From a phage: a stretch of 64,000 bases of DNA. Under the pieces are notes generated by a model. That model ran no database searches. It was not told the origin of the DNA and worked only from the letters and a program-made list of their open reading frames with translations. The position numbers and the translations under genes were made by a program. Shown here one piece after another: positions 46,593 through 58,132 of the stretch (position 1 is the first letter of the stretch; every line of letters starts with the position of its first letter). Location: sequence record PX418922.1. One strand, 5' to 3'.

Positions 46593-46609
46593 AGTAGCAC
46601 TCCTTTTAG

Positions 46610-46627
46610 AAGGGGCCGAAGCCCCTT
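46610..46627 (-). terminator. GGGGCUUCGGCCCC hairpin terminator, minus strand
   Basis: Minus-strand AAGGGGC-TTCG-GCCCCTT right after lysozyme stop. Confidence 0.55.
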
Positions 46628-46629
46628 TA

Positions 46630-47130
46630 TTAGTTGTAAGCATCTAAAGTTCCAGAAGTCAGAACTTTAATTACTCGTTCAGCACGGTTTGGCGTCTGGC
46701 TATACCATCGGCTTTTACGCATGTTTTTACCTGCTTGAGTATAATATGCATTGCTGATTAAAGTCAAGCTATTTTGAAACCCTTCAGCACCTTTTAACCC
46801 CAACTGGAAAACCATGTTGATTATTCCCAATTTACGAGTATCACTAACCTTATCATAGATTGGTGATAAGATAGCACTGTTTTTTATGTCTCTCTTCACT
46901 TTTGCAACATCGTCAGCAAAGATTTGACGGGCTTCTTTTTCTGTGATAACTCCATTAGTCTTACGACCAAGAAGATTATCTAAGATTTGAATAGCCTTTG
47001 CTTTATCTTTTATTTTAGTCAGAAGGTGTCCTATGCCGACTGTCCAATAACCAAGATGGTCTTGATAAACAGTAAGCTTCAGTCCTTCATCGACTCGTAG
47101 CATATCAAACTCATCTACTACTTTAGCCAT
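46630..47130 (-). CDS. e: T4-type lysozyme (endolysin, muramidase)
   Basis: Strong similarity to T4 lysozyme: MLRVDEGLKL..Y.D..GYWTVGIGHLLTK, catalytic Glu/Asp context, INMVFQLG, KSRWYSQTPNRAERVI. Confidence 0.85.
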   Translation of the reverse strand: MAKVVDEFDMLRVDEGLKLTVYQDHLGYWTVGIGHLLTKIKDKAKAIQILDNLLGRKTNGVITEKEARQIFADDVAKVKRDIKNSAILSPIYDKVSDTRKLGIINMVFQLGLKGAEGFQNSLTLISNAYYTQAGKNMRKSRWYSQTPNRAERVIKVLTSGTLDAYN

Positions 47131-47137
47131 TTACTTC

Positions 47138-47287
47138 CTATTCGTCGTCTCCTACTCCGTGATCCAACTCGTTAAACAACAGATGTTCTGGAGAAGTTTC
47201 ACGTTTTGGTTTCGTTTTCTTTATGTTGGACTTCAGCTCATTTGCCAAAGCACGAGAAAAGATCTTACGTTTCTGTTTACTTTTCAT
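47138..47287 (-). CDS. small basic protein (49 aa)
   Basis: ATG 47287 with RBS GGAG; Lys/Arg-rich; below ORF-track cutoff. Confidence 0.4.
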   Translation of the reverse strand: MKSKQKRKIFSRALANELKSNIKKTKPKRETSPEHLLFNELDHGVGDDE

Positions 47288-47292
47288 AATTG

Positions 47293-47553
47293 TTACTCCG
47301 CAATTTGAGCCATGAGATCACGCAGTTCGGTAAAACCGCCTACGTATGTTACCTCCCCGTTCACTTCAGACAGAATTTGTGGAAATGTGCGTGGAGGAAC
47401 TCCGGTAAGATCAACAACTGTTTTAGTCATTGATTCTAAATCATAGTCTTGATCAAGACTTAAATATTCAAACTGTTTATTGCGCATGGTTAATAGTTGT
47501 TTTGACATTTCACAAAATTGACAGTTAGGTTTACCAAAAATTACAAATTCCAT
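47293..47553 (-). CDS. glutaredoxin/NrdH-like redoxin
   Basis: CQFC active-site motif in GKPNCQFCE context, thioredoxin-fold size (86 aa); RBS AAGGAG. Confidence 0.75.
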   Translation of the reverse strand: MEFVIFGKPNCQFCEMSKQLLTMRNKQFEYLSLDQDYDLESMTKTVVDLTGVPPRTFPQILSEVNGEVTYVGGFTELRDLMAQIAE

Positions 47554-48395
47554 TACCTCTCCTTATTAAGTAATACTGCTAAAGACTGTTCAATACCTTT
47601 ATTTAAATCTGATTTTGTAAGATAGTGACTGGTTACTAGTTGTGACTTCACCGGACGTGCTGCTGGAGCATTATAGGTTGAAGCTGATACCGCCGATATC
47701 TTAACAGGTTCTGGCATCTGTGTCAAGATCTTTTCCGCAAACTCCGCCCAAGAAATAAGATGGCTTCCTGCAAAATGGTAAGTCTTAACAGACCTTGACC
47801 AACCTGTTTTTAATACTTCAAAAATAGCTTCTGCTAAATCTGGAGCATATGTTGGACAAGAGAACTGATCAGCAACAATAATAAAATCACGTTGTCCATC
47901 ATTATAGCGAGACAACATGGTTTTTAGAAAGTTATTTCCAAATTCGCTATATACCGAGGCTGTTCGAATAATATATGCATTTGGGTTAACTCCTCGCACC
48001 ATTTTTTCACCAAGTTCTTTCGTATACCCATAATTGTTTATTGGGTTAGGTGTAGTATCTTCAAAAATAGGATGAGAATAATTAAAAATATAGTCTGTAG
48101 AAATATGCACAAAATCAATTTTAAGTTTGCTGCACACTGCCGCAATATTTGCAGGTCCATACGCATTAACAGCCAAAGCAGTAGCAAAATCATGTTCTGC
48201 TTTATCTACAGCCGTATAAGCGGCGCAATTAATAACACCATCTACATAATCTTCAATAATAGCGTTTCGCACAGCTTCAAAATTTGTAATATCTACACGT
48301 TCTTTAGGATAAATTAAAGATACATTTGAAGGAGCCACTTTACGTAAAGCTTGTCCCAGTTGTCCATTACCGCCCAATACCAGATATGTTAGCAT
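47553..48395 (-). CDS. rmlD: dTDP-4-dehydrorhamnose reductase
   Basis: N-terminal LVLGGNGQLGQAL Rossmann motif and overall RmlD-like sequence; last gene of rmlBACD block. Confidence 0.8.
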   Translation of the reverse strand: MLTYLVLGGNGQLGQALRKVAPSNVSLIYPKERVDITNFEAVRNAIIEDYVDGVINCAAYTAVDKAEHDFATALAVNAYGPANIAAVCSKLKIDFVHISTDYIFNYSHPIFEDTTPNPINNYGYTKELGEKMVRGVNPNAYIIRTASVYSEFGNNFLKTMLSRYNDGQRDFIIVADQFSCPTYAPDLAEAIFEVLKTGWSRSVKTYHFAGSHLISWAEFAEKILTQMPEPVKISAVSASTYNAPAARPVKSQLVTSHYLTKSDLNKGIEQSLAVLLNKER

Positions 48396-48955
48396 ACACC
48401 CTCGCTACGTAACTGTTGAAAAGATTTAGCCATTGCATCTTTTGTTGATAGGATAGGTTTAAAACCTTCGTCAAAAATCATATCGAAGCCCCAATCGATC
48501 CCTATATCAGGATCATCCCAACGTAAACTTTGTTCACTAGAAGGGTCGTATGGAGTTGTGCATTTGTATTCAAAGATAGCATCCATACTCAAAACTATAA
48601 AACCATGAGCCAAACCAGGCGGAAGCCAAAACTGCGTATGGTGTCGTGCACGAAGAACAACACCGTCCCAAGCACCGTAAGTTGGACTATCTTTACGTAA
48701 ATCTACAGCGAAATCCAATACTTCCCCACTTACACAACGAACTAGCTTACCTTGCGGGTTATTTGTTTGAAAGTGCATTCCTCGCAAAACACCGAAGTTT
48801 GATTTAGACATGTTATCTTGAACGAAAGTTTGTCTACCAATAATATCTTCGTATTTTTGTTCATTATATGTTTCTAGAAAGAAACCACGATCATCTTTAT
48901 AAACGTCTGGTTTGATAATTACCGCACCTTCAATTTTTGTTTTTTCTACTTTCAT
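48389..48955 (-). CDS. rmlC: dTDP-4-dehydrorhamnose 3,5-epimerase
   Basis: RmlC-like DDRGFF..E and RGMHFQ motifs; ATG 48955 with RBS GGAGAG overlapping rmlA stop (ATGA). Confidence 0.8.
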
Positions 48956-49830
48956 TTTCTCTCCGCTAATTTGAGTAGGTATTGCCCGTACTCTGTTTTC
49001 TTCAGTGAGTTTCCATGATACACCAAAGTCTCTAAAGAAATCCACCCTTTTTTGAAAGCAATTTCTTCCAGGCACGCAATCTTCAATCCTTGACGGTTCT
49101 CAATAGTCTGCACGAATTGACCAGCTTCCATCAGACTGGCGTGTGTTCCTGTGTCAAGCCAAGTAAATCCTCGTCCGAGAACTTCCACTTGTAACTTCCT
49201 GTCTTCTAGGTAGCTGCGATTGATATCAGTGATCTCCAGTTCTCCACGCGCGGAAGGGGTTACTTCTAATGCACGTTGAATAACAGAGTTATCATAGAAA
49301 TACAAACCTGTGACAGCATAATCTGATTTAGGATTTTCAGGTTTCTCTTCAATAGAAATAGCTTGACGATTACTCCCAAATTCAACCACACCGAATCGTT
49401 CAGGATCTTTCACCAAATACCCGAAGATACAAGCTCCACCCCAAACATCTACCATCTCACTAGCGTTAATCAGTAGTTTACCAAAGCTTTGTCCGAAGAA
49501 TAGGTTGTCACCTAAAATAAGAGCAACAGAGTCTTCTCCGATAAAATCTTTACCGATGATGAAAGCGTCAGCAAGACCTCGTGGCTCGGATTGGATTGCG
49601 TAAGTGAGTTTTATCCCAAACATAGATCCATCTCCGAGAAGATACTCAAAGTCTTCCTGATCGCCTGGTGTGGTGATGATTAAGATATCCTTAATATCAG
49701 CCAACATCAATACCGATAAAGGGTAGTAGATCATGGGTTTGTCATACACAGGGAGCAATTGCTTGCTCACACTGCGTGTTACCGGATGAAGGCGGGTTCC
49801 ACTTCCTCCCGCCAAAATAATACCTTTCAT
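48952..49830 (-). CDS. rmlA: glucose-1-phosphate thymidylyltransferase
   Basis: N-terminal [18 protein letters not shown] nucleotidyltransferase motif; RmlA-like throughout. Confidence 0.85.
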
Positions 49831-49838
49831 AACCCTCC

Positions 49839-50831
49839 TTAAATCTTCTCACTCCACCATTGAGGGTTGTTTAAGTACCATTCAATCGTTGAGTAGAGAT
49901 CTTGTTCAAATGTAGAGTTTGCACTCCAACCCAGTTCAGACTCTATTTTAGAAGGATTGATTTCATAACGCAAGTCATGTCCTTTACGATCTTCAACAAA
50001 AGTTATCAAGTTGGAAGAAGGGTAGGTTCCTGCTTCTGGATGTACAGCATCCATGTAGTCACAAACCATATAGATGATCTCCATATTGGTTTTGGGATTA
50101 CGTGTTCCAACATTATACGTTTGACCTGGTTCTCCACCTGTTGCCACTTGAAGAATAGCTCGCGCATGATCCTCAACAAAAAGCCAGTCTCGCACCTGAT
50201 CGCCTTTACCATACACCGGAATCTCTTTATTCGTCAAGATATTTGTGATGATTTTTGGGATCAGCTTTTCTGGATGTTGATAAGGTCCAAAGTTATTGGA
50301 GCAGTTGGTTATCACAACAGGTAAATCGTAGGTACGGTACCAAGCTTTCACAAGATGGTCAGATGCCGCCTTAGACGCACTGTATGGGCTTGAAGGGGCA
50401 TAAGCTGTCTCTTCGGTAAAAGGAACGCCAGAGTCTGCCATATCGCCGTACACTTCGTCTGTGGAGACGTGTACGAACATCTTCAGTTTATTTTTTGGGA
50501 GGAGCCTTGCAGCTTCCAATAAATTGTATGTACCAATAATATTGGAGTCAATGAAAACTCGTGGATTCTTGATAGAATTATCCACATGACTCTCTGCCGC
50601 TAAGTGAATGATGAAATCGGGATTGCACTCTACTACTAAACTTTTGACCTGGGTTTCGTTTGCCAAATCTGTTATGCTTAGTTTAACGTGAGTGATATCG
50701 CCTACATTCTCAATATCTGCTGCATAGCCCATCTTATCAACGACAAAAACTTCGTTATTAGGATCTTGACAAAGAGAGCGCACCACGGCACTCCCAATAA
50801 AACCAAGACCACCTGTTACCAGATAGCGCAT
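49839..50831 (-). CDS. rmlB: dTDP-glucose 4,6-dehydratase
   Basis: N-terminal [16 protein letters not shown]-binding motif; SDR catalytic YSASK. Confidence 0.85.
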
Positions 50832-50840
50832 CAGTTCTCC

Positions 50841-51167
50841 TTACCAGACATGTTGAGAAATAATAGTTTCCGTTTTAATGTTATATTTTTCAAGTAGCTT
50901 TGCATAGGCTTCTTTTGCATTCTCATTCAATTGCTCAAGATCTACAGCTATGCTTCCCTCTCCGCCTTCTAAATCAAGGCCATATATGCAATAAGACTCA
51001 TCCGCATCGTAGAAAGGAGAGATGCGGCTTAAGTCCAGACCTTCTTGTAAGAACCAGTTAAAATCTCCATCAAATTCTTCTTCAATTCTAGGATCTTCTC
51101 CTACAGCCTCTTCCCATTTATTAAAAGGTGCACCCTGTAACATACGCCATGCAATATCAACTCCCAC
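50841..51167 (-). CDS. hypothetical acidic protein (108 aa)
   Basis: GTG start; minus-strand ORF. Confidence 0.45.
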   Translation of the reverse strand: MGVDIAWRMLQGAPFNKWEEAVGEDPRIEEEFDGDFNWFLQEGLDLSRISPFYDADESYCIYGLDLEGGEGSIAVDLEQLNENAKEAYAKLLEKYNIKTETIISQHVW

Positions 51168-51512: not shown

Positions 51513-51699
51513 ACTTGGCTACACCATTAACTATAATGTGACCACAAGACATAACTCCTAGCCAAGGATCGCCGTTTTTCTTCAGGCGTTTACCGAATAC
51601 ATCACAAAAACCATTCTTCATTTCGGAGGCTTCATAAGAAGCCCCTTTATCAAAAACGTCTTTGAATGTGTCGATTATACCAACACATCTCAAAATCAT
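51481..51699 (-). CDS. hypothetical protein (72 aa)
   Basis: Minus-strand ORF abutting nrdB stop. Confidence 0.45.
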   Translation of the reverse strand: MILRCVGIIDTFKDVFDKGASYEASEMKNGFCDVFGKRLKKNGDPWLGVMSCGHIIVNGVAKFEIIKGEKDD

Positions 51700-52784
51700 T
51701 AGAAGTCAAGCTCCTCATCATCAGAGAGATCTTTGTTAGCTGAATTCAATTTGTAATTAGTTAACTGAATCTCTTGGGCTGCTGACTGAATCAAATCAGG
51801 ATTCAACCATTTTTCCATCCAAGCTAAAGGACTATGTTTAGGTGCTTTAAACTTGGCTTTCATTTTCAATCGACGATAAATAGGAGCAGCATTGAAATAA
51901 ACCCACTGTTTAGACAATTCGGCGTTAAGACCTACAATAAAACGACCTTCACTAAACAGGTAGTCACACCACTGTTCCTCTTGTTCAACAACAGTGTCGA
52001 GGATCAAAGTCAACTCTTCAATATTATCTTCGTAAATTTTACGCCAAATTGGGTCATGCATCAATGCATCAATTACAGCATAATCCATCTTAACATGCAA
52101 GATTTCATCTAGCATAATTTTCTGGATCAGTTTACAAGCCCCAACAAACAGTTGTTGTTCTGCCATAGCAAAAGTAGCAGAGAAGGAAGATATAAACTGA
52201 ATACCTTCTAATCCAATCAGGGCTACCATCCCTTTAAGAATCAGCAATCGAAGTTCATCGTTAGCTTCAATCAATCCTAGAGCATACTTATGACCAGCTT
52301 CTTCCAACTGACCCATGATATCAGCAATGATACCCATACGATTGAAAATTTTATCATTAATCATAATCTGATTGATGACTTCAATTGGATCTGGAGTACA
52401 TTGACGGATTATTTCAGAATACGTTAACGCATGGAGAACTTCCATTTCACTCTGCTTCATCATCATAGCACAGGCTTCATTGTTACTCAAGAATGGAGAG
52501 AACAAAGTGATGATTGATTTTGCAAGAGAATCATTTTCCCATTGGAACGATAAGTTTTTAATCATAACATCATAGTTGTTTTTAGAACAAGCTACGAAAT
52601 CTTTACGTGTCTGATCCAGATTAACTTCGTTTTCATCCCAATCTTGTGCTTTTTGAAGTTTGTAGAGTTTGTGCATTTCTGGATAAGTTACGTTAACAGA
52701 ATCAAAGATCCCTAATTGCTCCCCCAAAAATACTGGATATTTTCCTGTTTTGTAAACTTCATTGTGTAAATTAATTGCTGCCAT
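51699..52784 (-). CDS. nrdB: ribonucleotide reductase class Ia small subunit
   Basis: Ferritin-like di-iron R2 fold; size and position next to nrdA. Confidence 0.8.
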   Translation of the reverse strand: MAAINLHNEVYKTGKYPVFLGEQLGIFDSVNVTYPEMHKLYKLQKAQDWDENEVNLDQTRKDFVACSKNNYDVMIKNLSFQWENDSLAKSIITLFSPFLSNNEACAMMMKQSEMEVLHALTYSEIIRQCTPDPIEVINQIMINDKIFNRMGIIADIMGQLEEAGHKYALGLIEANDELRLLILKGMVALIGLEGIQFISSFSATFAMAEQQLFVGACKLIQKIMLDEILHVKMDYAVIDALMHDPIWRKIYEDNIEELTLILDTVVEQEEQWCDYLFSEGRFIVGLNAELSKQWVYFNAAPIYRRLKMKAKFKAPKHSPLAWMEKWLNPDLIQSAAQEIQLTNYKLNSANKDLSDDEELDF

Positions 52785-52805: not shown

Positions 52806-52821
52806 GGGGGCCGAAGCCCCT
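52806..52821 (-). terminator. GGGGCUUCGGCCCC hairpin between HEG and nrdB
   Basis: Minus-strand GGGGC-TTCG-GCCCCC followed by TTTTATT, then RBS of nrdB. Confidence 0.5.
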
Positions 52822-52827
52822 TTATAT

Positions 52828-53484
52828 TTAGCCTCGAAATACTGTTTTTGTTTCCGCCAGGTGCCAATAGAAATCAGCTTTGTTTACAAGAGTGTTGTAC
52901 ACCTCTGGATAAAAATGTTCTTCCTCTTTGTAACGATCTGCTGTTTCCCTGATTGACTTAGCTTTATCCTTTAGCCAATCGAAGTGTGCCTCTTCCTCTG
53001 TAGAGAAGTAGCCTAAATGCTTTCCTTTACTCCCAGAAGCTTTGGCATAAATCTTACCATCTTTCCTAACATGTGCTCCTAGTAAGTATTTTCTTTCATA
53101 CCTCTTAGCATAACTTAAGAGTGTATTTATATAAGGAGGAACAAACCTACAATATTCAGGACAATAAACAGTATTTCCTTCAAGAACAAGATCTTTATCT
53201 AAAACAAAGCCTTCCACATTGTGTTCTTGATACCAGTTATCAAAGTTTGAAAAGGTGAACCAAGCATCACACACAGTAACATCTTTATAACCTGGTCTAA
53301 TGTTTTCCATACGATATGCACGATTAAACATGCCTTTCCAAGCTGCATAGGAAGGGTCTATGAATGTATTAACCCTTTTCCCATTGATAACACCACCTTC
53401 CCACAATCTACGTTCAACATCCACAATCAAGGGGATTTCTCCCCTCTCTGTGAGAACGGTAACTTTACGTTTACCCTTCTTCAT
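52828..53484 (-). mobile_element. HNH homing endonuclease with AP2-like DNA-binding domain, inserted between nrdA and nrdB
   Basis: N-terminal phage HNH-type block (YAAWKGMFNRAY..VTVCDAWF.FSNF) and C-terminal KHLGYFSTEEEAHFDWL AP2-like motif; location mirrors T4 mobE. Confidence 0.6.
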
Positions 53485-53495
53485 CTGTTCTCCTA

Positions 53496-55739
53496 CTACA
53501 TTTTACAGGCACTACACCCTTCGTCTTCAGAATCTTCTTGTGCTAAAGAATCTGCTGATTTTGTTCTACTGTTAAGGTAATACAATGACTTACCACCCAG
53601 TCTAGCAAAATTCAGAATAAACTGCATCTCAGCTTTCACTGATAAACGTCCACCTACCAATTTAGAATAATCTAGCCAAGAATCACAAGAAATTCCTTGG
53701 TCCGTAAACTTGGTAAAGATACCATACATTTCTGCAAGGTCTTTAGCCGGAGTATCCCAGGCGGATTGGTAGAACATTTTCAGTTTTTCGTAGTCTGGAA
53801 CAATAAATAATACGCTACCTTTCTGACTTTGTTTATACATAATGGTATCACGAACAGGGTACAGAGAGTTAGTAGTATTGCTTACCAAACTGCTGGACTC
53901 ATTAGGTGCAATAGCAGCCAAGACACTGTTACGGATACCACCTTGTTCAATGATTTCAGCACGTAAGCCTTCCCAGTCCATTTTAAGATCAAAATTACCG
54001 ATACTATCTACTGTTTTAGCATAAGTGTCAATTGGTAGCCAACCTTGAGGCCATTTGGTCTTATCGATCCATTCTGCATTACCTTTTTCCTTAGCCAGAC
54101 GCAGAGAGGCTTTTGCCAACCAAAAGTAATGACGTTCTGCAAGTTCATGCATTAATTTTTTAGCATAAGCATCTGAATAATTTACAAAATTACTTGCCAA
54201 ATAATGCGCTAAGTTTGTAATACCTACACCAATAGATCTACGTGCTTTAGCAGTTATTTCGTTATGTTTAAATGGATAATCCATTGTTTCAATAACGTTG
54301 TCAATTGTCAATACAGTGTAGTATGCAACATCCTCATATTCTTCAGGTAAGACACGACCAGCGACAATAGAAGATAAGAAGCATAAAGCCAATTCTTGAT
54401 CTTCTGTATTCTCACCAGTAAAGAGATCCGGCATACTGTGGAAAGCTTTAGTTGGTAAGAAGATCTCTTGACACAGGTTTGATTGATACACCGTATCCAG
54501 GAAAGGTGTATGGTTGTTAACGTTGTCAGCAAAGAACATGTAAATACGTCCTGTTTCTGCACGTTGAACAATAATCTCTGTCAGAAGATCACGAGCCTTA
54601 ACAAATTTTTTCTTAATGCGACGACGGCTTACTTTGTCATAAACTGCATCAAACTCTTCTTCACTTTTATACAAGGCTTCATAAAGTTCAGGAGCATCAT
54701 CACAACTAACTAACATCCAGTCTTCGTTTTTTGCTGCTCGACGCAAGAACGAACGGTTAACAACAATAGAATAATCTAGTTTGTCTACTCGTTTATCTAT
54801 AGGTGTTGTTGGATTCTTCAGTCGAATCAGATCGTCGAAGTCTGGTTCAAGTATGGTAAAGGTAACTGTAGCACTACCTCCACGGCTTGCTTGCTTCGAA
54901 GCTCCAACACTATCTTCCATCCATTTCAGATACGGAAGAAGACCACCATGAATAATACGATTATTCTTAACACCTTGACCTGTGGCACGAGTTTGAAGAT
55001 TAACACCAATACCTGCGTTATTCAACGTATACTCATGAGCTAAGTAATTAGCAATGGCTAAAGATTCTGCCGTATCGTCTGCACGGAATAAACAACAAGA
55101 CGCACTTCCTTTGATTGGAGTTCGTAGAGTTGTCAGATACGGCGATGGCAGATTAATCTTAAGATCGCTAACATAAGTATAAAGTTTTTTAATATCTTCT
55201 ATACGGCGTTCTTTTGGTTGGATCTCCATAACCTTCATTGCGATACCAATGAAAAGAAACTGTGGAGACTCATGCACCACATCGTTTACTGCATCTCGAA
55301 TAAGATATTTATCTACCATCTGACGTAAAACAGAATAACCATAAGTTAGATTTTTATTATGCTTTACAATCTTACCTATTTCTTTGATCTCTTCATCAGT
55401 ATAATCCATTTTAGCCCAATGTCCACGTTCTACCATATCATGATAAAAGGTATTCAGTGAAGGGATGCTGTGGTATCCCCCATGAGCCTGTTTGTAAATC
55501 ATACCCAGAAGAAGTCTTCCTGCCATATCACTGTAAGCTTGTGTTTTCTTGTCAATACACGCTGCAATCATTGCTTTATGCAGATCACGCGTAGACACAC
55601 CGTCATAACACCGCTTCACAGCTTCTAATTCAATTTCAGACCAGTTTAGTTTACCTGCTGCAAATTCAGACCACTTGCGAAGTTTTTCTGGATTAAACTC
55701 CTCTGTCTTACCGTTAGATTTAGTTACAAAACGAATCAA
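53496..55739 (-). CDS. nrdA: ribonucleotide reductase class Ia large subunit
   Basis: N-terminal ATP-cone; active-site NLCQEI and ESSS motifs; C-terminal CSACKM redox cysteines; 747 aa. Confidence 0.9.
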   Translation of the reverse strand: MIRFVTKSNGKTEEFNPEKLRKWSEFAAGKLNWSEIELEAVKRCYDGVSTRDLHKAMIAACIDKKTQAYSDMAGRLLLGMIYKQAHGGYHSIPSLNTFYHDMVERGHWAKMDYTDEEIKEIGKIVKHNKNLTYGYSVLRQMVDKYLIRDAVNDVVHESPQFLFIGIAMKVMEIQPKERRIEDIKKLYTYVSDLKINLPSPYLTTLRTPIKGSASCCLFRADDTAESLAIANYLAHEYTLNNAGIGVNLQTRATGQGVKNNRIIHGGLLPYLKWMEDSVGASKQASRGGSATVTFTILEPDFDDLIRLKNPTTPIDKRVDKLDYSIVVNRSFLRRAAKNEDWMLVSCDDAPELYEALYKSEEEFDAVYDKVSRRRIKKKFVKARDLLTEIIVQRAETGRIYMFFADNVNNHTPFLDTVYQSNLCQEIFLPTKAFHSMPDLFTGENTEDQELALCFLSSIVAGRVLPEEYEDVAYYTVLTIDNVIETMDYPFKHNEITAKARRSIGVGITNLAHYLASNFVNYSDAYAKKLMHELAERHYFWLAKASLRLAKEKGNAEWIDKTKWPQGWLPIDTYAKTVDSIGNFDLKMDWEGLRAEIIEQGGIRNSVLAAIAPNESSSLVSNTTNSLYPVRDTIMYKQSQKGSVLFIVPDYEKLKMFYQSAWDTPAKDLAEMYGIFTKFTDQGISCDSWLDYSKLVGGRLSVKAEMQFILNFARLGGKSLYYLNSRTKSADSLAQEDSEDEGCSACKM

Positions 55740-56515: not shown

Positions 56516-57514
56516 TCACCATTTAGTATGATTTGTTAAAAGTTGACGATGTTGAATCCAGCCTTTGAAATTGCCAGACCAAAACTTACCATTACGATCT
56601 ACATGGGTAATACCTGGTTCCCAAGAGTTAAAATCCCAAGGAGCATTGATAAACAAATCTTCAAAACAGTTCTCTCCATATTGTTCGCATGTTTCTTGAA
56701 TTGGAGTGGCTTGATGTTCAAACGGAGAAGCATGAACCTTGCGCCCAGTCAGCAAGCGACCATAGATATCTAAAGCTTTATCTTTAGTTGCATTTAAACG
56801 ACGATAGCTAACCTGTGCACAACATGAAGCTGAAATAGCTTTGGCTTCTTCCAAAGTAAGCACAACAACTTCTCCAGATTCATCTTGAACGTAGTATCCA
56901 CCAAAAACAAAATGATCGTCACCTTCTGTGCCAATATTATCGTAGAAATGGTCTACATAAGGTGTGTGCCATTGCCCTGGTTTCAGCACTTCTGGTGTAG
57001 ATCCTTCATACTCTTTGTGCATCTCTTTAGCCAAAGCTTCGATAGTAGGATCGGCTTCTTTGTCATCACGTAGCCACCAGAAATTTTCATATTCTGTTGC
57101 TGTCAGAACTGTTTTAATTCGTTGGAAAGGTTCCAGAAGACGGTTTGCAACTTGTTTGTGGTACCCTGCCAAAGAGAATTCTTCTGCAAAACGTGCTGCA
57201 CTAAGCGCGGCAAGATCCCACCACTCTTGAGCAGTATAACCTGCATCAATAAGAGCGTCATGATCAACACCTTTATCCTGCATACCAGGTTGGTTAGCCC
57301 CAAAACGATAAGGACGAGCAGGTTGATTTCGCACCATTTCAATCAGTGTTTTAACAGGTATAGCACGGCTAGAAGCAGCATTACGACTGAACAGGCGGTG
57401 AGTCATCAATTCTGAATGAATAATACGTGGATATTCTAGTTCAAAAGTTACAATCTCTTTTCCGTCTTCAGTGATGGAATGCGCAATAATACTAGCCGAA
57501 ATCTGTTTTGTCAT
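56516..57514 (-). CDS. thyX: ThyX-like protein with variant signature motif (putative flavin-dependent thymidylate synthase)
   Basis: ELMTHRLFSRNAASSRA aligns to ThyX signature LIRHRHFSYSQLSQRY with R to T and Y to A changes; 332 aa, longer than typical ThyX. Confidence 0.5.
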   Translation of the reverse strand: MTKQISASIIAHSITEDGKEIVTFELEYPRIIHSELMTHRLFSRNAASSRAIPVKTLIEMVRNQPARPYRFGANQPGMQDKGVDHDALIDAGYTAQEWWDLAALSAARFAEEFSLAGYHKQVANRLLEPFQRIKTVLTATEYENFWWLRDDKEADPTIEALAKEMHKEYEGSTPEVLKPGQWHTPYVDHFYDNIGTEGDDHFVFGGYYVQDESGEVVVLTLEEAKAISASCCAQVSYRRLNATKDKALDIYGRLLTGRKVHASPFEHQATPIQETCEQYGENCFEDLFINAPWDFNSWEPGITHVDRNGKFWSGNFKGWIQHRQLLTNHTKW

Positions 57515-57523
57515 TTTTTCTCC

Positions 57524-58132
57524 TTAGTTTTTAAAATTGTTCAAAGTGTTAAAAACATCCAAACATGTTAGCCACTGATCTTCTAAACCTGTGATCACAA
57601 CATTTGGTTTTTTCTTTAGTTCTTCTAGATGGTTATCTTTATAAGGCGTATTAAAATATATTTTAACCACTTCATCTGGAAAATATAGTAGGTTATCAGC
57701 CCTGTCATCTATTGCTATATCACAAGGCAATAAGTATTTTTCTTTCGTAGCAAAAAAGCCGTTACCAGATCCTTTGCTAAAATCAATCGTATCTAATGTT
57801 CTTAAAACATGCTTATGTTTAGAACTTAAGTGACCACCTTTTGTCACACTTGCGATCAAAAGATCGCTACCTTTCCTTGAAACATACTTTAAGAAATCTG
57901 GCATACCTGGAACAAAACCCATTGTATCATAGAGATGAGGATTATCCAGAAATCCGTAAGGATCTATATTGAACTCCTCCCTGAAACCAGGAAAGTAGTT
58001 GGTAAGATCATAGTCTGCATTTTTTGTGAATGTGTCTATCTTAACACCAAGTCCACTAATCTTATTCAACCATTCTAACCAAGCAACATCTAATGGAGCC
58101 ACAACTAAATCCCAATCACATACTATCTGCAT
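57524..58132 (-). CDS. HAD-family 5'(3')-deoxyribonucleotidase-like protein
   Basis: N-terminal IVCDWDLV DxD motif typical of 5'-nucleotidases; nucleotide-metabolism neighbourhood. Confidence 0.45.
   Translation of the reverse strand: MQIVCDWDLVVAPLDVAWLEWLNKISGLGVKIDTFTKNADYDLTNYFPGFREEFNIDPYGFLDNPHLYDTMGFVPGMPDFLKYVSRKGSDLLIASVTKGGHLSSKHKHVLRTLDTIDFSKGSGNGFFATKEKYLLPCDIAIDDRADNLLYFPDEVVKIYFNTPYKDNHLEELKKKPNVVITGLEDQWLTCLDVFNTLNNFKN

Follow-up and report, generated by a model that had tools for sequence, protein, structure and literature searches.

The stretch examined here is a 64,000-nucleotide segment of a phage genome (sequence record PX418922.1, numbered 5' to 3' from its first letter), to which we refer throughout as the window. 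On its minus strand it carries four contiguous genes, in the order rmlB-rmlA-rmlC-rmlD, predicted to encode all of the enzymes that convert glucose-1-phosphate and dTTP into dTDP-L-rhamnose, followed by a gene for a glutaredoxin (grx). The source phage is an E. coli phage of the genus Phapecoctavirus (subfamily Stephanstirmvirinae); Escherichia phage phAPEC8 and dozens of other members of the genus match it at 99% nucleotide identity. The window and phAPEC8 share the order B-A-C-D-grx-lysozyme-PhoH at 99% nucleotide identity across the whole feature, and nothing of substance differs between them apart from a 218-amino-acid (aa) open reading frame (ORF) between nrdA and nrdB that is present in the window only. 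Phage phi92 has the identical order and flanks (gp064–gp067), with protein identities to the window of 54–71%. The operon is divided into a conserved and an optional part and is inherited together with a distant cassette of glycosyltransferase (GT) genes, and both features bear on what the sugar may be used for.

We assigned the four enzymes using NCBIfam hidden Markov models and their curated equivalog cut-offs, with Pfam in agreement. RmlB scored 430.5 bits against TIGR01181 (cut-off 365.1), RmlA 467.7 bits against TIGR01207 (cut-off 360.65, covering residues 2–289 of 292), RmlC 224.2 bits against TIGR01221 (cut-off 155.75) and RmlD 237.6 bits against TIGR01214 (cut-off 224.05). The last of these is a marginal pass; the E. 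coli-type model NF007440 gave RmlD 118 bits, with 308 required. RmlB contains the NAD-binding motif GLGFIG and the catalytic TDE and YxxxK elements (TDEVYG and YSASK), and its closest solved structure is Salmonella RmlB (1G1A, E 1e-110). RmlA keeps all of its motifs for nucleotide and sugar-phosphate binding (GGSGTRL, KQLL, GDN, EKP and DTG) and aligns over its full length, with few gaps, to solved RmlA and RffH enzymes (E 1e-116 to 1e-126). In the alignment with Salmonella RmlC (1DZR), the GMHFQ, GKLV and FEYK segments of the phage protein coincide with the His, Lys and Tyr residues that make up the catalytic centre of this cupin. RmlD displays GGNGQLG together with STDY and YGYTK, the latter two representing the short-chain dehydrogenase/reductase triad, and every one of its solved relatives is an RmlD enzyme (best 3SC6, E 7e-44). 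An earlier note on this DNA, made by reading the sequence without database searches, had proposed a complete four-gene pathway on the minus strand; with four out of four products above their equivalog cut-offs and their motifs kept, that claim stands.

The start of rmlC is most likely the ATG at position 48955 rather than the upstream GTG of the mechanically called ORF (49075), because the conserved domain and the phAPEC8 annotation both begin there. With this start, rmlA and rmlC overlap by 4 nucleotides (ATGA), rmlC and rmlD by 7, and rmlD and the glutaredoxin gene by 1 (TAATG), an arrangement that points to translational coupling; rmlB and rmlA are separated by an 8-nucleotide spacer that contains GGAGGG. 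The coupled, overlapping starts that the earlier note had described are therefore found at three of the four junctions, the exception being rmlB/rmlA. Its description of a redoxin followed by a lysozyme was correct as to the genes (a glutaredoxin with a CQFC motif and a T4-type lysozyme), with the correction that a 49-aa ORF lies between them.

The coding sequences are also under constraint. Relative to phAPEC8, rmlB carries 16 synonymous and 5 nonsynonymous differences and rmlA carries 10 and 2; the resulting ratio of nonsynonymous to synonymous rates (dN/dS) is 0.06–0.08 for these two genes. In the comparison with phi92, the proportions of differing nonsynonymous and synonymous sites are 0.21–0.30 (pN) and 0.65–0.82 (pS). 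Each of the four genes is under purifying selection. Judged from its sequence, the dTDP-L-rhamnose pathway is very probably functional. A scan for promoters and terminators returned the same counts as shuffled sequence, and operon boundaries could not be drawn. A G+C-rich hairpin followed by a run of T residues (GGGGCTTCGGCCCC) is located just upstream of nrdB (52807–52820, minus strand), and a similar G+C-rich hairpin (GAAGGGGCCGAAGCCCCTT) is found at the lysozyme/PhoH junction (46609–46628); despite these two hairpins, the terminator total over the scan was not above that of shuffled sequence.

Features of the rml locus and its surroundings (coordinates are those of the window)
Feature	Coordinates	Strand	Remarks
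rmlB, dTDP-glucose 4,6-dehydratase, 330 aa	49839..50831	-	Optional rmlB-rmlA module
rmlA, glucose-1-phosphate thymidylyltransferase, 292 aa	48952..49830	-	Optional rmlB-rmlA module
rmlC, dTDP-4-dehydrorhamnose 3,5-epimerase, 188 aa	48389..48955	-	Conserved core; begins MKVEK
rmlD, dTDP-4-dehydrorhamnose reductase, 280 aa	47553..48395	-	Conserved core
rmlB-rmlA presence/absence module, 1,876 bp	48960..50835	-	Flanked by Shine-Dalgarno GGAGA direct repeat (50840-50836, 48964-48960)
108-aa ORF, unknown function (phrog_15453)	50841..51167	-	Directly upstream of rmlB
Glutaredoxin (CQFC), 86 aa	47293..47553	-	Pfam Glutaredoxin 38.1 bits
49-aa ORF	47138..47287	-	Between glutaredoxin and lysozyme
T4-type lysozyme	46630..47130	-	
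nrdB	51699-52784	-	Pfam Ribonuc_red_sm; phAPEC8 annotation
218-aa variable ORF	52828-53484	-	Between nrdA and nrdB; no Pfam match
nrdA	53496-55739	-	
Divergent ThyX-like gene	56516..57514	-	Pfam Thy1 33.3 bits
NT5C-like deoxynucleotidase	57524-58132	-	Adjoins ThyX-like gene

Comparison with related phages revealed that the four genes do not travel as a unit. In an alignment of phage anhysbys to the window, the stop codon of the 108-aa ORF is followed by a single GGAGA and then directly by rmlC. The two genomes are thus related by a clean indel with its ends inside the two GGAGA sequences, leaving rmlC with a ribosome-binding site whether or not the rmlB-rmlA module is present. RmlC at 95% identity or above was found in 65 records (all of the phapecoctavirus records) and RmlA at the same level in 47, the latter including phiWec-type phages in which RmlC is only 65% identical; about a third of the phapecoctaviruses lack rmlB-rmlA. 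Phages with rmlC-rmlD only include anhysbys, nepoznato, ZCKP1, Mt1B1_P17 and ETEC-TG, and phage ESCO37 has been reported to lack rmlB and rmlA (PMC10269720). The gene numbering in that same publication hinted at a second rmlA/rmlB copy in phage ESCO5; when redundant assemblies are discounted, our searches found a single locus in each genome, and we set this possibility aside. The more distant, syntenic Klebsiella phage KP2025 also has only rmlC-rmlD, located between nrdB and the glutaredoxin gene, and in KP2025 as in anhysbys the 108-aa ORF adjoins rmlC directly. In Escherichia phage phiWec186 (LC739535.1, 96735–98158), an RmlA that is 97% identical to that of the window adjoins an RmlC that is only 65% identical, so that the operon is a mosaic; this implies that the rmlB-rmlA module may have been exchanged between phage lineages by recombination.

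Enterobacteria use RffH and RffG to produce dTDP-4-keto-6-deoxyglucose for enterobacterial common antigen (ECA), and genes of the rffG/rffH type were detected in all 5,426 of the E. coli genomes searched. The host enzymes thus supply the 4-keto intermediate, and RmlC and RmlD alone would therefore suffice for the synthesis of dTDP-L-rhamnose. The pattern of a constant core and an optional module says that the phage needs the end product of the pathway and not the intermediate. A parallel count of E. coli rmlC and rmlD genes by DNA search (33 matches) was discarded, since blastn is insensitive at this divergence and the low count does not represent true absence.

The rml operon is intact and long resident in the phage lineage; it was not captured recently from a host and is not the product of a chimeric assembly. 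The locus is present at 95–99% identity in 65 independent phage records and is syntenic in a sister genus. Among complete E. coli genomes, homologues were found in 5,426 of 5,426, with a best DNA identity of 64% and with none spanning 80% of the operon. Among the RmlD homologues, an abrupt drop in identity separates a phage clade of about fifty clusters (50–99% identity, located on contigs of 135–157 kb) from cellular proteins, for which identity does not exceed 45%. The earlier note had reached the same conclusion about host capture from the observation that the operon is AT-rich like the rest of the phage. That observation does not hold for half of the operon (the G+C content of rmlB and rmlA is 0.42–0.43, against 0.37–0.38 for rmlC and rmlD and 0.387 for the window; G+C at third codon positions is 0.39–0.40 against 0.22–0.27), and rmlB-rmlA is the most G+C-rich stretch of its neighbourhood. 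The argument from base composition was thus weak, and the conclusion is upheld instead by the phage-wide distribution, the distant best match in E. coli and the RmlD clade. The 65 independent records and the syntenic sister genus also rule out the other possibility that the note had raised, host DNA in a chimeric assembly.

The products of the bacterial rfbBDAC and rffG/rffH genes of E. coli and Salmonella belong to these four enzyme families and carry out identical reactions, and the catalytic residues of the phage proteins align with those of the solved enzymes. The phage operon differs from the bacterial rfb locus in its gene order (B-A-C-D, compared with rfbB-D-A-C in E. coli), in its DNA sequence, in its phage-specific RmlD clade, in the absence of adjoining O-unit transferases, flippase and polymerase, and in its division into a CD core and a BA module. 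RmlC homologues that are 41–47% identical are found in Synechococcus phages S-B05 and S-B43, Sphingomonas phage PAU and marine viruses. Giant viruses (Mimivirus and chloroviruses) resemble the phage studied here in producing their own activated 6-deoxyhexose, in their case for capsid and fibril glycans. They do so by a UDP-L-rhamnose route that employs different enzymes.

The existence of the operon is not new. All four Rml enzymes are already named in GenBank records of phapecoctaviruses, including that of phAPEC8 (JX561091, genes 00100–00103), the pathway is discussed in two papers (Olsen et al., and Maffei et al. 2021, PMC8594841, who mention a 'putative dTDP glycosylation machinery' of phi92-like phages), and DNA glycosylation has been put forward, as speculation, for rml-bearing phages (PMC7552041). 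The finding as originally handed over to us is thus an ordinary one: the operon has been annotated since the phAPEC8 record, its oddity has been noted in print, and both the operon and its DNA-glycosylation reading are already known. We found no functional or biochemical study of the phage rml pathway in the literature searched. The division into an rmlCD core and an rmlBA module and the wide spread of the associated GT cassette, described below, appear not to have been spelled out before. Six further records (MG065650, MG065645, MG065656, MG065689, OP562383 and MW175890) are labelled as Campylobacter, Acinetobacter or 'Dompiswa' phages; across rml and the GT cluster they are 97–99% identical to phapecoctaviruses of E. 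coli or to Justusliebigvirus, and the hosts given in these labels seem doubtful.

The phAPEC8 RefSeq record contains four adjacent GT genes (gp071–gp074) at 109.6–112.8 kb, between primase/helicase and endolysin genes, approximately 70 kb from rml and outside the window. The products of gp073 and gp074 are GT4-like GT-B paralogues, 41% identical to one another, with weak matches to Pfam Glyco_trans_1; gp072, which has a DxD motif, belongs to the GT-A enzymes, and gp071 is a small GT-A-like protein. No transmembrane segments were detected in gp068–gp075, which indicates that the GTs are soluble. All four are found in the same set of phages as rml, namely all 65 phapecoctaviruses, Justusliebigvirus and the phiWec179-like phages. 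The phapecoctaviruses that lack rmlB-rmlA retain all four GTs, the Klebsiella relatives carry part of the cassette, and neither rml nor these GTs were found in Vequintavirus.

A further connection is seen in two distant large phages, where the cassette itself contains a gene for an RmlB-like NDP-sugar 4,6-dehydratase of 356 aa, flanked on one side by the gp071-like gene and on the other by the gp072-like gene (loci L008, 2667–3737, and L028, 7949–9010). With 171 bits against TIGR01181 this protein falls short of the cut-off; it retains STDE and YAASK motifs. The embedded gene physically ties the cassette to the synthesis of deoxy-sugar nucleotides.

The cassette is widespread. Homologues of gp073 that are annotated as 'bacterial' proved to be prophage-borne, and genes resembling gp071, gp072 and gp073, in the same order and translationally coupled, are present in Serratia, Pseudomonas silvicola, E217-like contigs and P. 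alliivorans. In these prophages the cassette either separates the lysis genes from terminase or immediately follows the gene for the major capsid protein, and no hydroxymethylase or TET enzyme was found beside it among the loci examined. A relative of the GT-B enzyme is encoded by at least 578 viral contigs. Among the large ORFs closest to the cassette in a further set of 15 non-redundant loci are six portals as well as terminases, capsid, prohead protease and Mu-F proteins, and DNA polymerase and primase genes are found there only in the large-myovirus relatives.

Sequence comparison of the four GTs with the PDB returned nothing meaningful. One remote relationship was obtained for gp072, which matches 327 mycobacteriophage records; its target is the N-terminal GT-A domain of a 478-aa GT, the larger one in the Cluster F1 cassette (for gene 99 of phage Maravista, E 9e-14 and 24% identity over 182 aa, with FDDDCYP in both proteins). 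Two structure models were of good predicted quality (predicted local distance difference test values, pLDDT, of 87.7 and 94.6), and their fold matches were generic GT-A and GT4 folds with no acceptor-specific signal. The structural neighbours of the GT-A enzyme gp072 include STIV A197, vaccinia H3, TarP and LH3, and those of the GT-B enzyme include BshA, MshA and PglA together with the protein O-glycosyltransferases GtfC, Gtf3 and SdgB.

Two further observations concern the surroundings of the cassette. In two unrelated genomes, Ter-associated genes ('tellurite resistance'/TerD, a vWA-TerF-like protein, a ComF-like phosphoribosyltransferase and HAD hydrolases) lie within a few kilobases of it (locus L004, phAPEC8 117.6–124.8 kb, and locus L023, 5963–7969), and a functional link is possible. 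In Burkholderia dolosa (JAIMDN010000082; locus L011, 3025–8440) a 411-aa GT-B homologue is located outside any prophage and adjoins an invasin/intimin-type inverse-autotransporter adhesin and a 571-aa unknown protein, which hints at adhesin glycosylation.

We believe the best explanation for these observations is that the phage makes rhamnose for a glycosylation reaction of its own. RmlA would join glucose-1-phosphate to dTTP, RmlB would dehydrate the product to dTDP-4-keto-6-deoxy-D-glucose, RmlC would epimerize this at C3 and C5, and RmlD would carry out the reduction at C4. The rmlC-rmlD genes would form the indispensable core, as many hosts would lack RmlC and RmlD whereas all enterobacterial hosts would provide the RffH/RffG intermediate, and rmlB-rmlA would be an optional, exchangeable booster that frees the phage from host supply. 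The resulting dTDP-L-rhamnose would be consumed by the soluble, co-inherited GT cassette, and the acceptor would be a phage protein, probably a component of the virion, which would thereby acquire a rhamnose-containing glycan as in the glycosylated mycobacteriophages. That the rml pathway feeds the phage GTs is probable, given their co-inheritance and gene neighbourhoods. A virion protein as the acceptor, suggested by genomic context and remote homology, is a more tentative proposal, and we place the explanation as a whole (phage rhamnose, transferred by the cassette to phage, probably virion, protein and not to DNA) a little short of an even chance. Of the three uses proposed in the earlier note (glycosylation of virion proteins, alteration of host surface polysaccharide and sugar hypermodification of DNA), the first is the best supported and the last is poorly supported; the second keeps a small share of the probability.

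The comparison with mycobacteriophages relies on secondary citations and on phage Maravista. Passages in PMC11256854 and PMC12363180, citing Freeman et al. 2023, describe virion glycosylation in mycobacteriophages of Clusters F1, O and C (Che8, Corndog and Myrna); the Maravista authors infer capsid glycosylation from the relatives Che8 and Rita, for which glycans on capsid and tail-tube subunits are reported. The two systems have in common soluble, phage-encoded GTs in a small cassette, in addition to the remote homology between gp072 and the F1 enzyme. They differ in that the present phages infect a Gram-negative host and make their own sugar nucleotide, that gp071 and the GT4-like GT-B paralogues have no detectable counterpart in Maravista, and that virion glycans have been reported for mycobacteriophages and are a prediction here.

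Several observations weigh against this explanation. In the literature searched we found no report of glycosylated virions for these phages, and the capsid, decoration, sheath and tube proteins of phAPEC8 have no convincing Ser/Thr-rich C-terminal tails of the kind that are glycosylated in mycobacteriophages. The cassette of the Stephanstirmvirinae is located in the replication module (with primase, Dam methylase and DNA polymerase) and not among structural genes, and its proximity to head genes in small phages is weakly informative because those genomes are compact. The joint presence of rml and the GTs in members of a single subfamily amounts largely to one event in evolution. The generic fold matches also include GTs that act on small-molecule, teichoic-acid and lipid-linked acceptors, and any of gp071–gp074, or none of them, may be the GT that uses dTDP-rhamnose. 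Finally, with RmlD so near its cut-off, the C4-epimeric product 6-deoxy-L-talose may be made instead of L-rhamnose.

We also considered whether the phage might provide dTDP-rhamnose to transferases of its own or of the host that remodel the envelope of the infected cell (lipopolysaccharide (LPS), O-antigen, ECA or another glycan) and thereby block superinfection or keep progeny from being adsorbed to debris. Rhamnose is a common O-antigen sugar, such phages have many tail fibres with which they recognise surface glycans, and infection requires wecB and the LPS core (PMC8594841, PMC11990801). The GT-B enzyme resembles GT4 enzymes that act on lipid-linked or cell-wall acceptors (PglA, PimB' and TarM) and has been annotated as RfaG-like by one depositor, and TarP, found among the structural neighbours of gp072, is a phage-encoded teichoic-acid GT. 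However, these phages are treated as strictly lytic, which leaves little time to replace envelope glycans, and the prophage cassettes occupy late lytic operons with terminase and capsid genes, which is not where seroconversion genes expressed during lysogeny would be expected. Neither membrane spans in gp068–gp075 nor a flippase, Wzy or GtrA/B-type partners among the Pfam families found accompany the cassette. We regard envelope remodelling as unlikely.

A role in DNA hypermodification, in which rhamnose or a rhamnose-containing glycan would be attached to a hydroxymethylated base (as T4 does with hydroxymethylcytosine, HMC) and would protect against nucleases, is suggested at first sight by location: the rml operon is placed amid nucleotide-metabolism genes, the GT cassette adjoins primase, Dam methylase and DNA polymerase, and the idea is the one already in print as speculation. 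The gp072 protein also weakly matches TAGT (Pfam E 0.001, 19.5 bits, cut-off 27.5) and PHROG 842, the T-even beta-glucosyl-HMC alpha-glucosyltransferase (E 8e-6). Both matches are sub-threshold or partial, and they are confined to residues 32–70 of gp072, a generic nucleotide-binding/DxD region; neither T4 AGT nor BGT appears among the 50 best structural neighbours of the GT-B enzyme or among the top matches of gp072. No dCMP or dUMP hydroxymethylase and no TET/JBP enzyme was found in Pfam scans of the window, in the phAPEC8 annotation or beside the prophage cassettes, and in small phages the cassette lies in late or structural regions. Vequintavirinae and phi92-like phages (Justusliebigvirus, with the same rml and GT genes) were described as 'exceptionally susceptible' to restriction-modification systems (PMC8594841), in a test from which phapecoctaviruses were absent.

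The cues to hypermodification that the earlier note had drawn from neighbouring genes have also lost their force. The first was the altered active-site motif of the ThyX-like gene, in which THR replaces the RHR of canonical ThyX. Vequintavirus, Seunavirus and the Klebsiella phage all have this motif (MTHRLFSRNAxSSRA) without variation, and in the first two of these both rml and the GTs are absent; because it is the same with or without rml, it has no specific tie to the sugar pathway. The second was a pair of methyltransferases, which, by annotation, rV5 and PVP-SE1 also have. T-even phages do resemble the phages studied here as lytic myoviruses with GTs near their replication genes, but here no set of hydroxymethylase, dCTPase and dNMP kinase came to light, a dTDP-deoxyhexose would take the place of host UDP-glucose as the donor, restriction sensitivity is reported for the sister genus and the similarity to DNA GTs is sub-threshold only. 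DNA glycosylation is thus poorly supported, and we consider it improbable; a sparse, site-specific modification would still be compatible with these data.

About equally improbable is some other soluble acceptor, such as a small molecule, RNA or a non-virion protein, for which rhamnose would serve as one building block; a nucleoside-like metabolite and a modified host factor would be examples. The top structural neighbours of the GT-B enzyme include BshA, MshA, GlgM and a tetrahydrobiopterin glucosyltransferase, which would fit such a role, as would the Ter-associated genes near the cassette in phAPEC8 and at L023 and the invasin-type adhesin beside the Burkholderia homologue. None of this indicates a specific acceptor, and in most of the loci examined the Ter genes are not adjacent.

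A further explanation dispenses with a transferase altogether: RmlC and RmlD would drain the ECA intermediate, and the dTDP-rhamnose that accumulates would inhibit RmlA/RffH, leaving more dTTP for the synthesis of phage DNA. That dTDP-L-rhamnose acts as a feedback inhibitor of RmlA is well established. The rml genes do lie inside a module for dNTP supply (nrdAB, grx and thyX), and the conserved core comprises exactly the enzymes that compete for the ECA intermediate. Against this, rmlA and rmlB are maintained by purifying selection in two thirds of phapecoctaviruses and in all phi92-like phages, although the two genes would raise the use of dTTP instead of lowering it, and the co-inherited GT cassette is left unexplained; such a diversion seems to us very improbable. 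A variant in which ECA is the phage receptor and its precursor is diverted was rejected, as a later BASEL paper ascribes host recognition by phi92-like phages to the NGR glycan (PMC11990801) and the presence of rmlA and rmlB speaks against simple diversion. That the genes are an artefact (host DNA from a chimeric assembly, or functionless, decaying passengers) has virtually no chance of being correct, since nothing beyond the slightly higher G+C content of rmlB and rmlA speaks for it and the 65 independent genomes, the sister genus, the distant E. coli match, the intact frames and motifs and a dN/dS far below 1 all speak against it.

Should virion glycosylation nevertheless be the correct explanation, its reach might extend beyond these coliphages. 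A broader proposal, which we think doubtful, is that a mobile cassette of three to four enzymes O-glycosylates virion proteins in Phapecoctavirus, Justusliebigvirus and the unrelated Pseudomonas and Serratia prophages, with the coliphage glycan incorporating phage-made rhamnose. If so, virion glycosylation would be documented for the first time outside of actinobacteriophages and would not be confined to actinobacterial hosts. These phages are popular therapy candidates against avian-pathogenic, uropathogenic and extended-spectrum beta-lactamase-producing E. coli. The virion glycans of mycobacteriophages have been reported to shield particles from antibodies, and a comparable coat here, if it exists, would have consequences for immunogenicity and for phage selection.

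The genes that surround the operon suggest how it came to its present position. In the rV5-like Vequintavirus inoa, which has no rml, a glutaredoxin orthologue (VOG4549) is found directly after nrdB and before nrdD, and Salmonella phage SSE121, also without rml, has a similar nrdB-glutaredoxin arrangement. Because these phages have the gene beside their nrd genes, the glutaredoxin is part of the ribonucleotide-reductase module and lends no support to DNA hypermodification; the rml genes were inserted between it and nrdB.

The ThyX-like protein is strictly conserved across Stephanstirmvirinae, Vequintavirus and Seunavirus and is a candidate thymidylate synthase; a comparison of its sequence with the PDB gave no match. 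The 218-aa ORF between nrdA and nrdB, absent from phAPEC8, is present in phages AV126, vB_Ec-G1 (where it is annotated as an HNH endonuclease) and ESCO5, and phi92 has a 218-aa ORF at the same nrdA/nrdB position. It looks like a mobile insertion of the homing-endonuclease type, and we take it to resemble mobE of phage T4.

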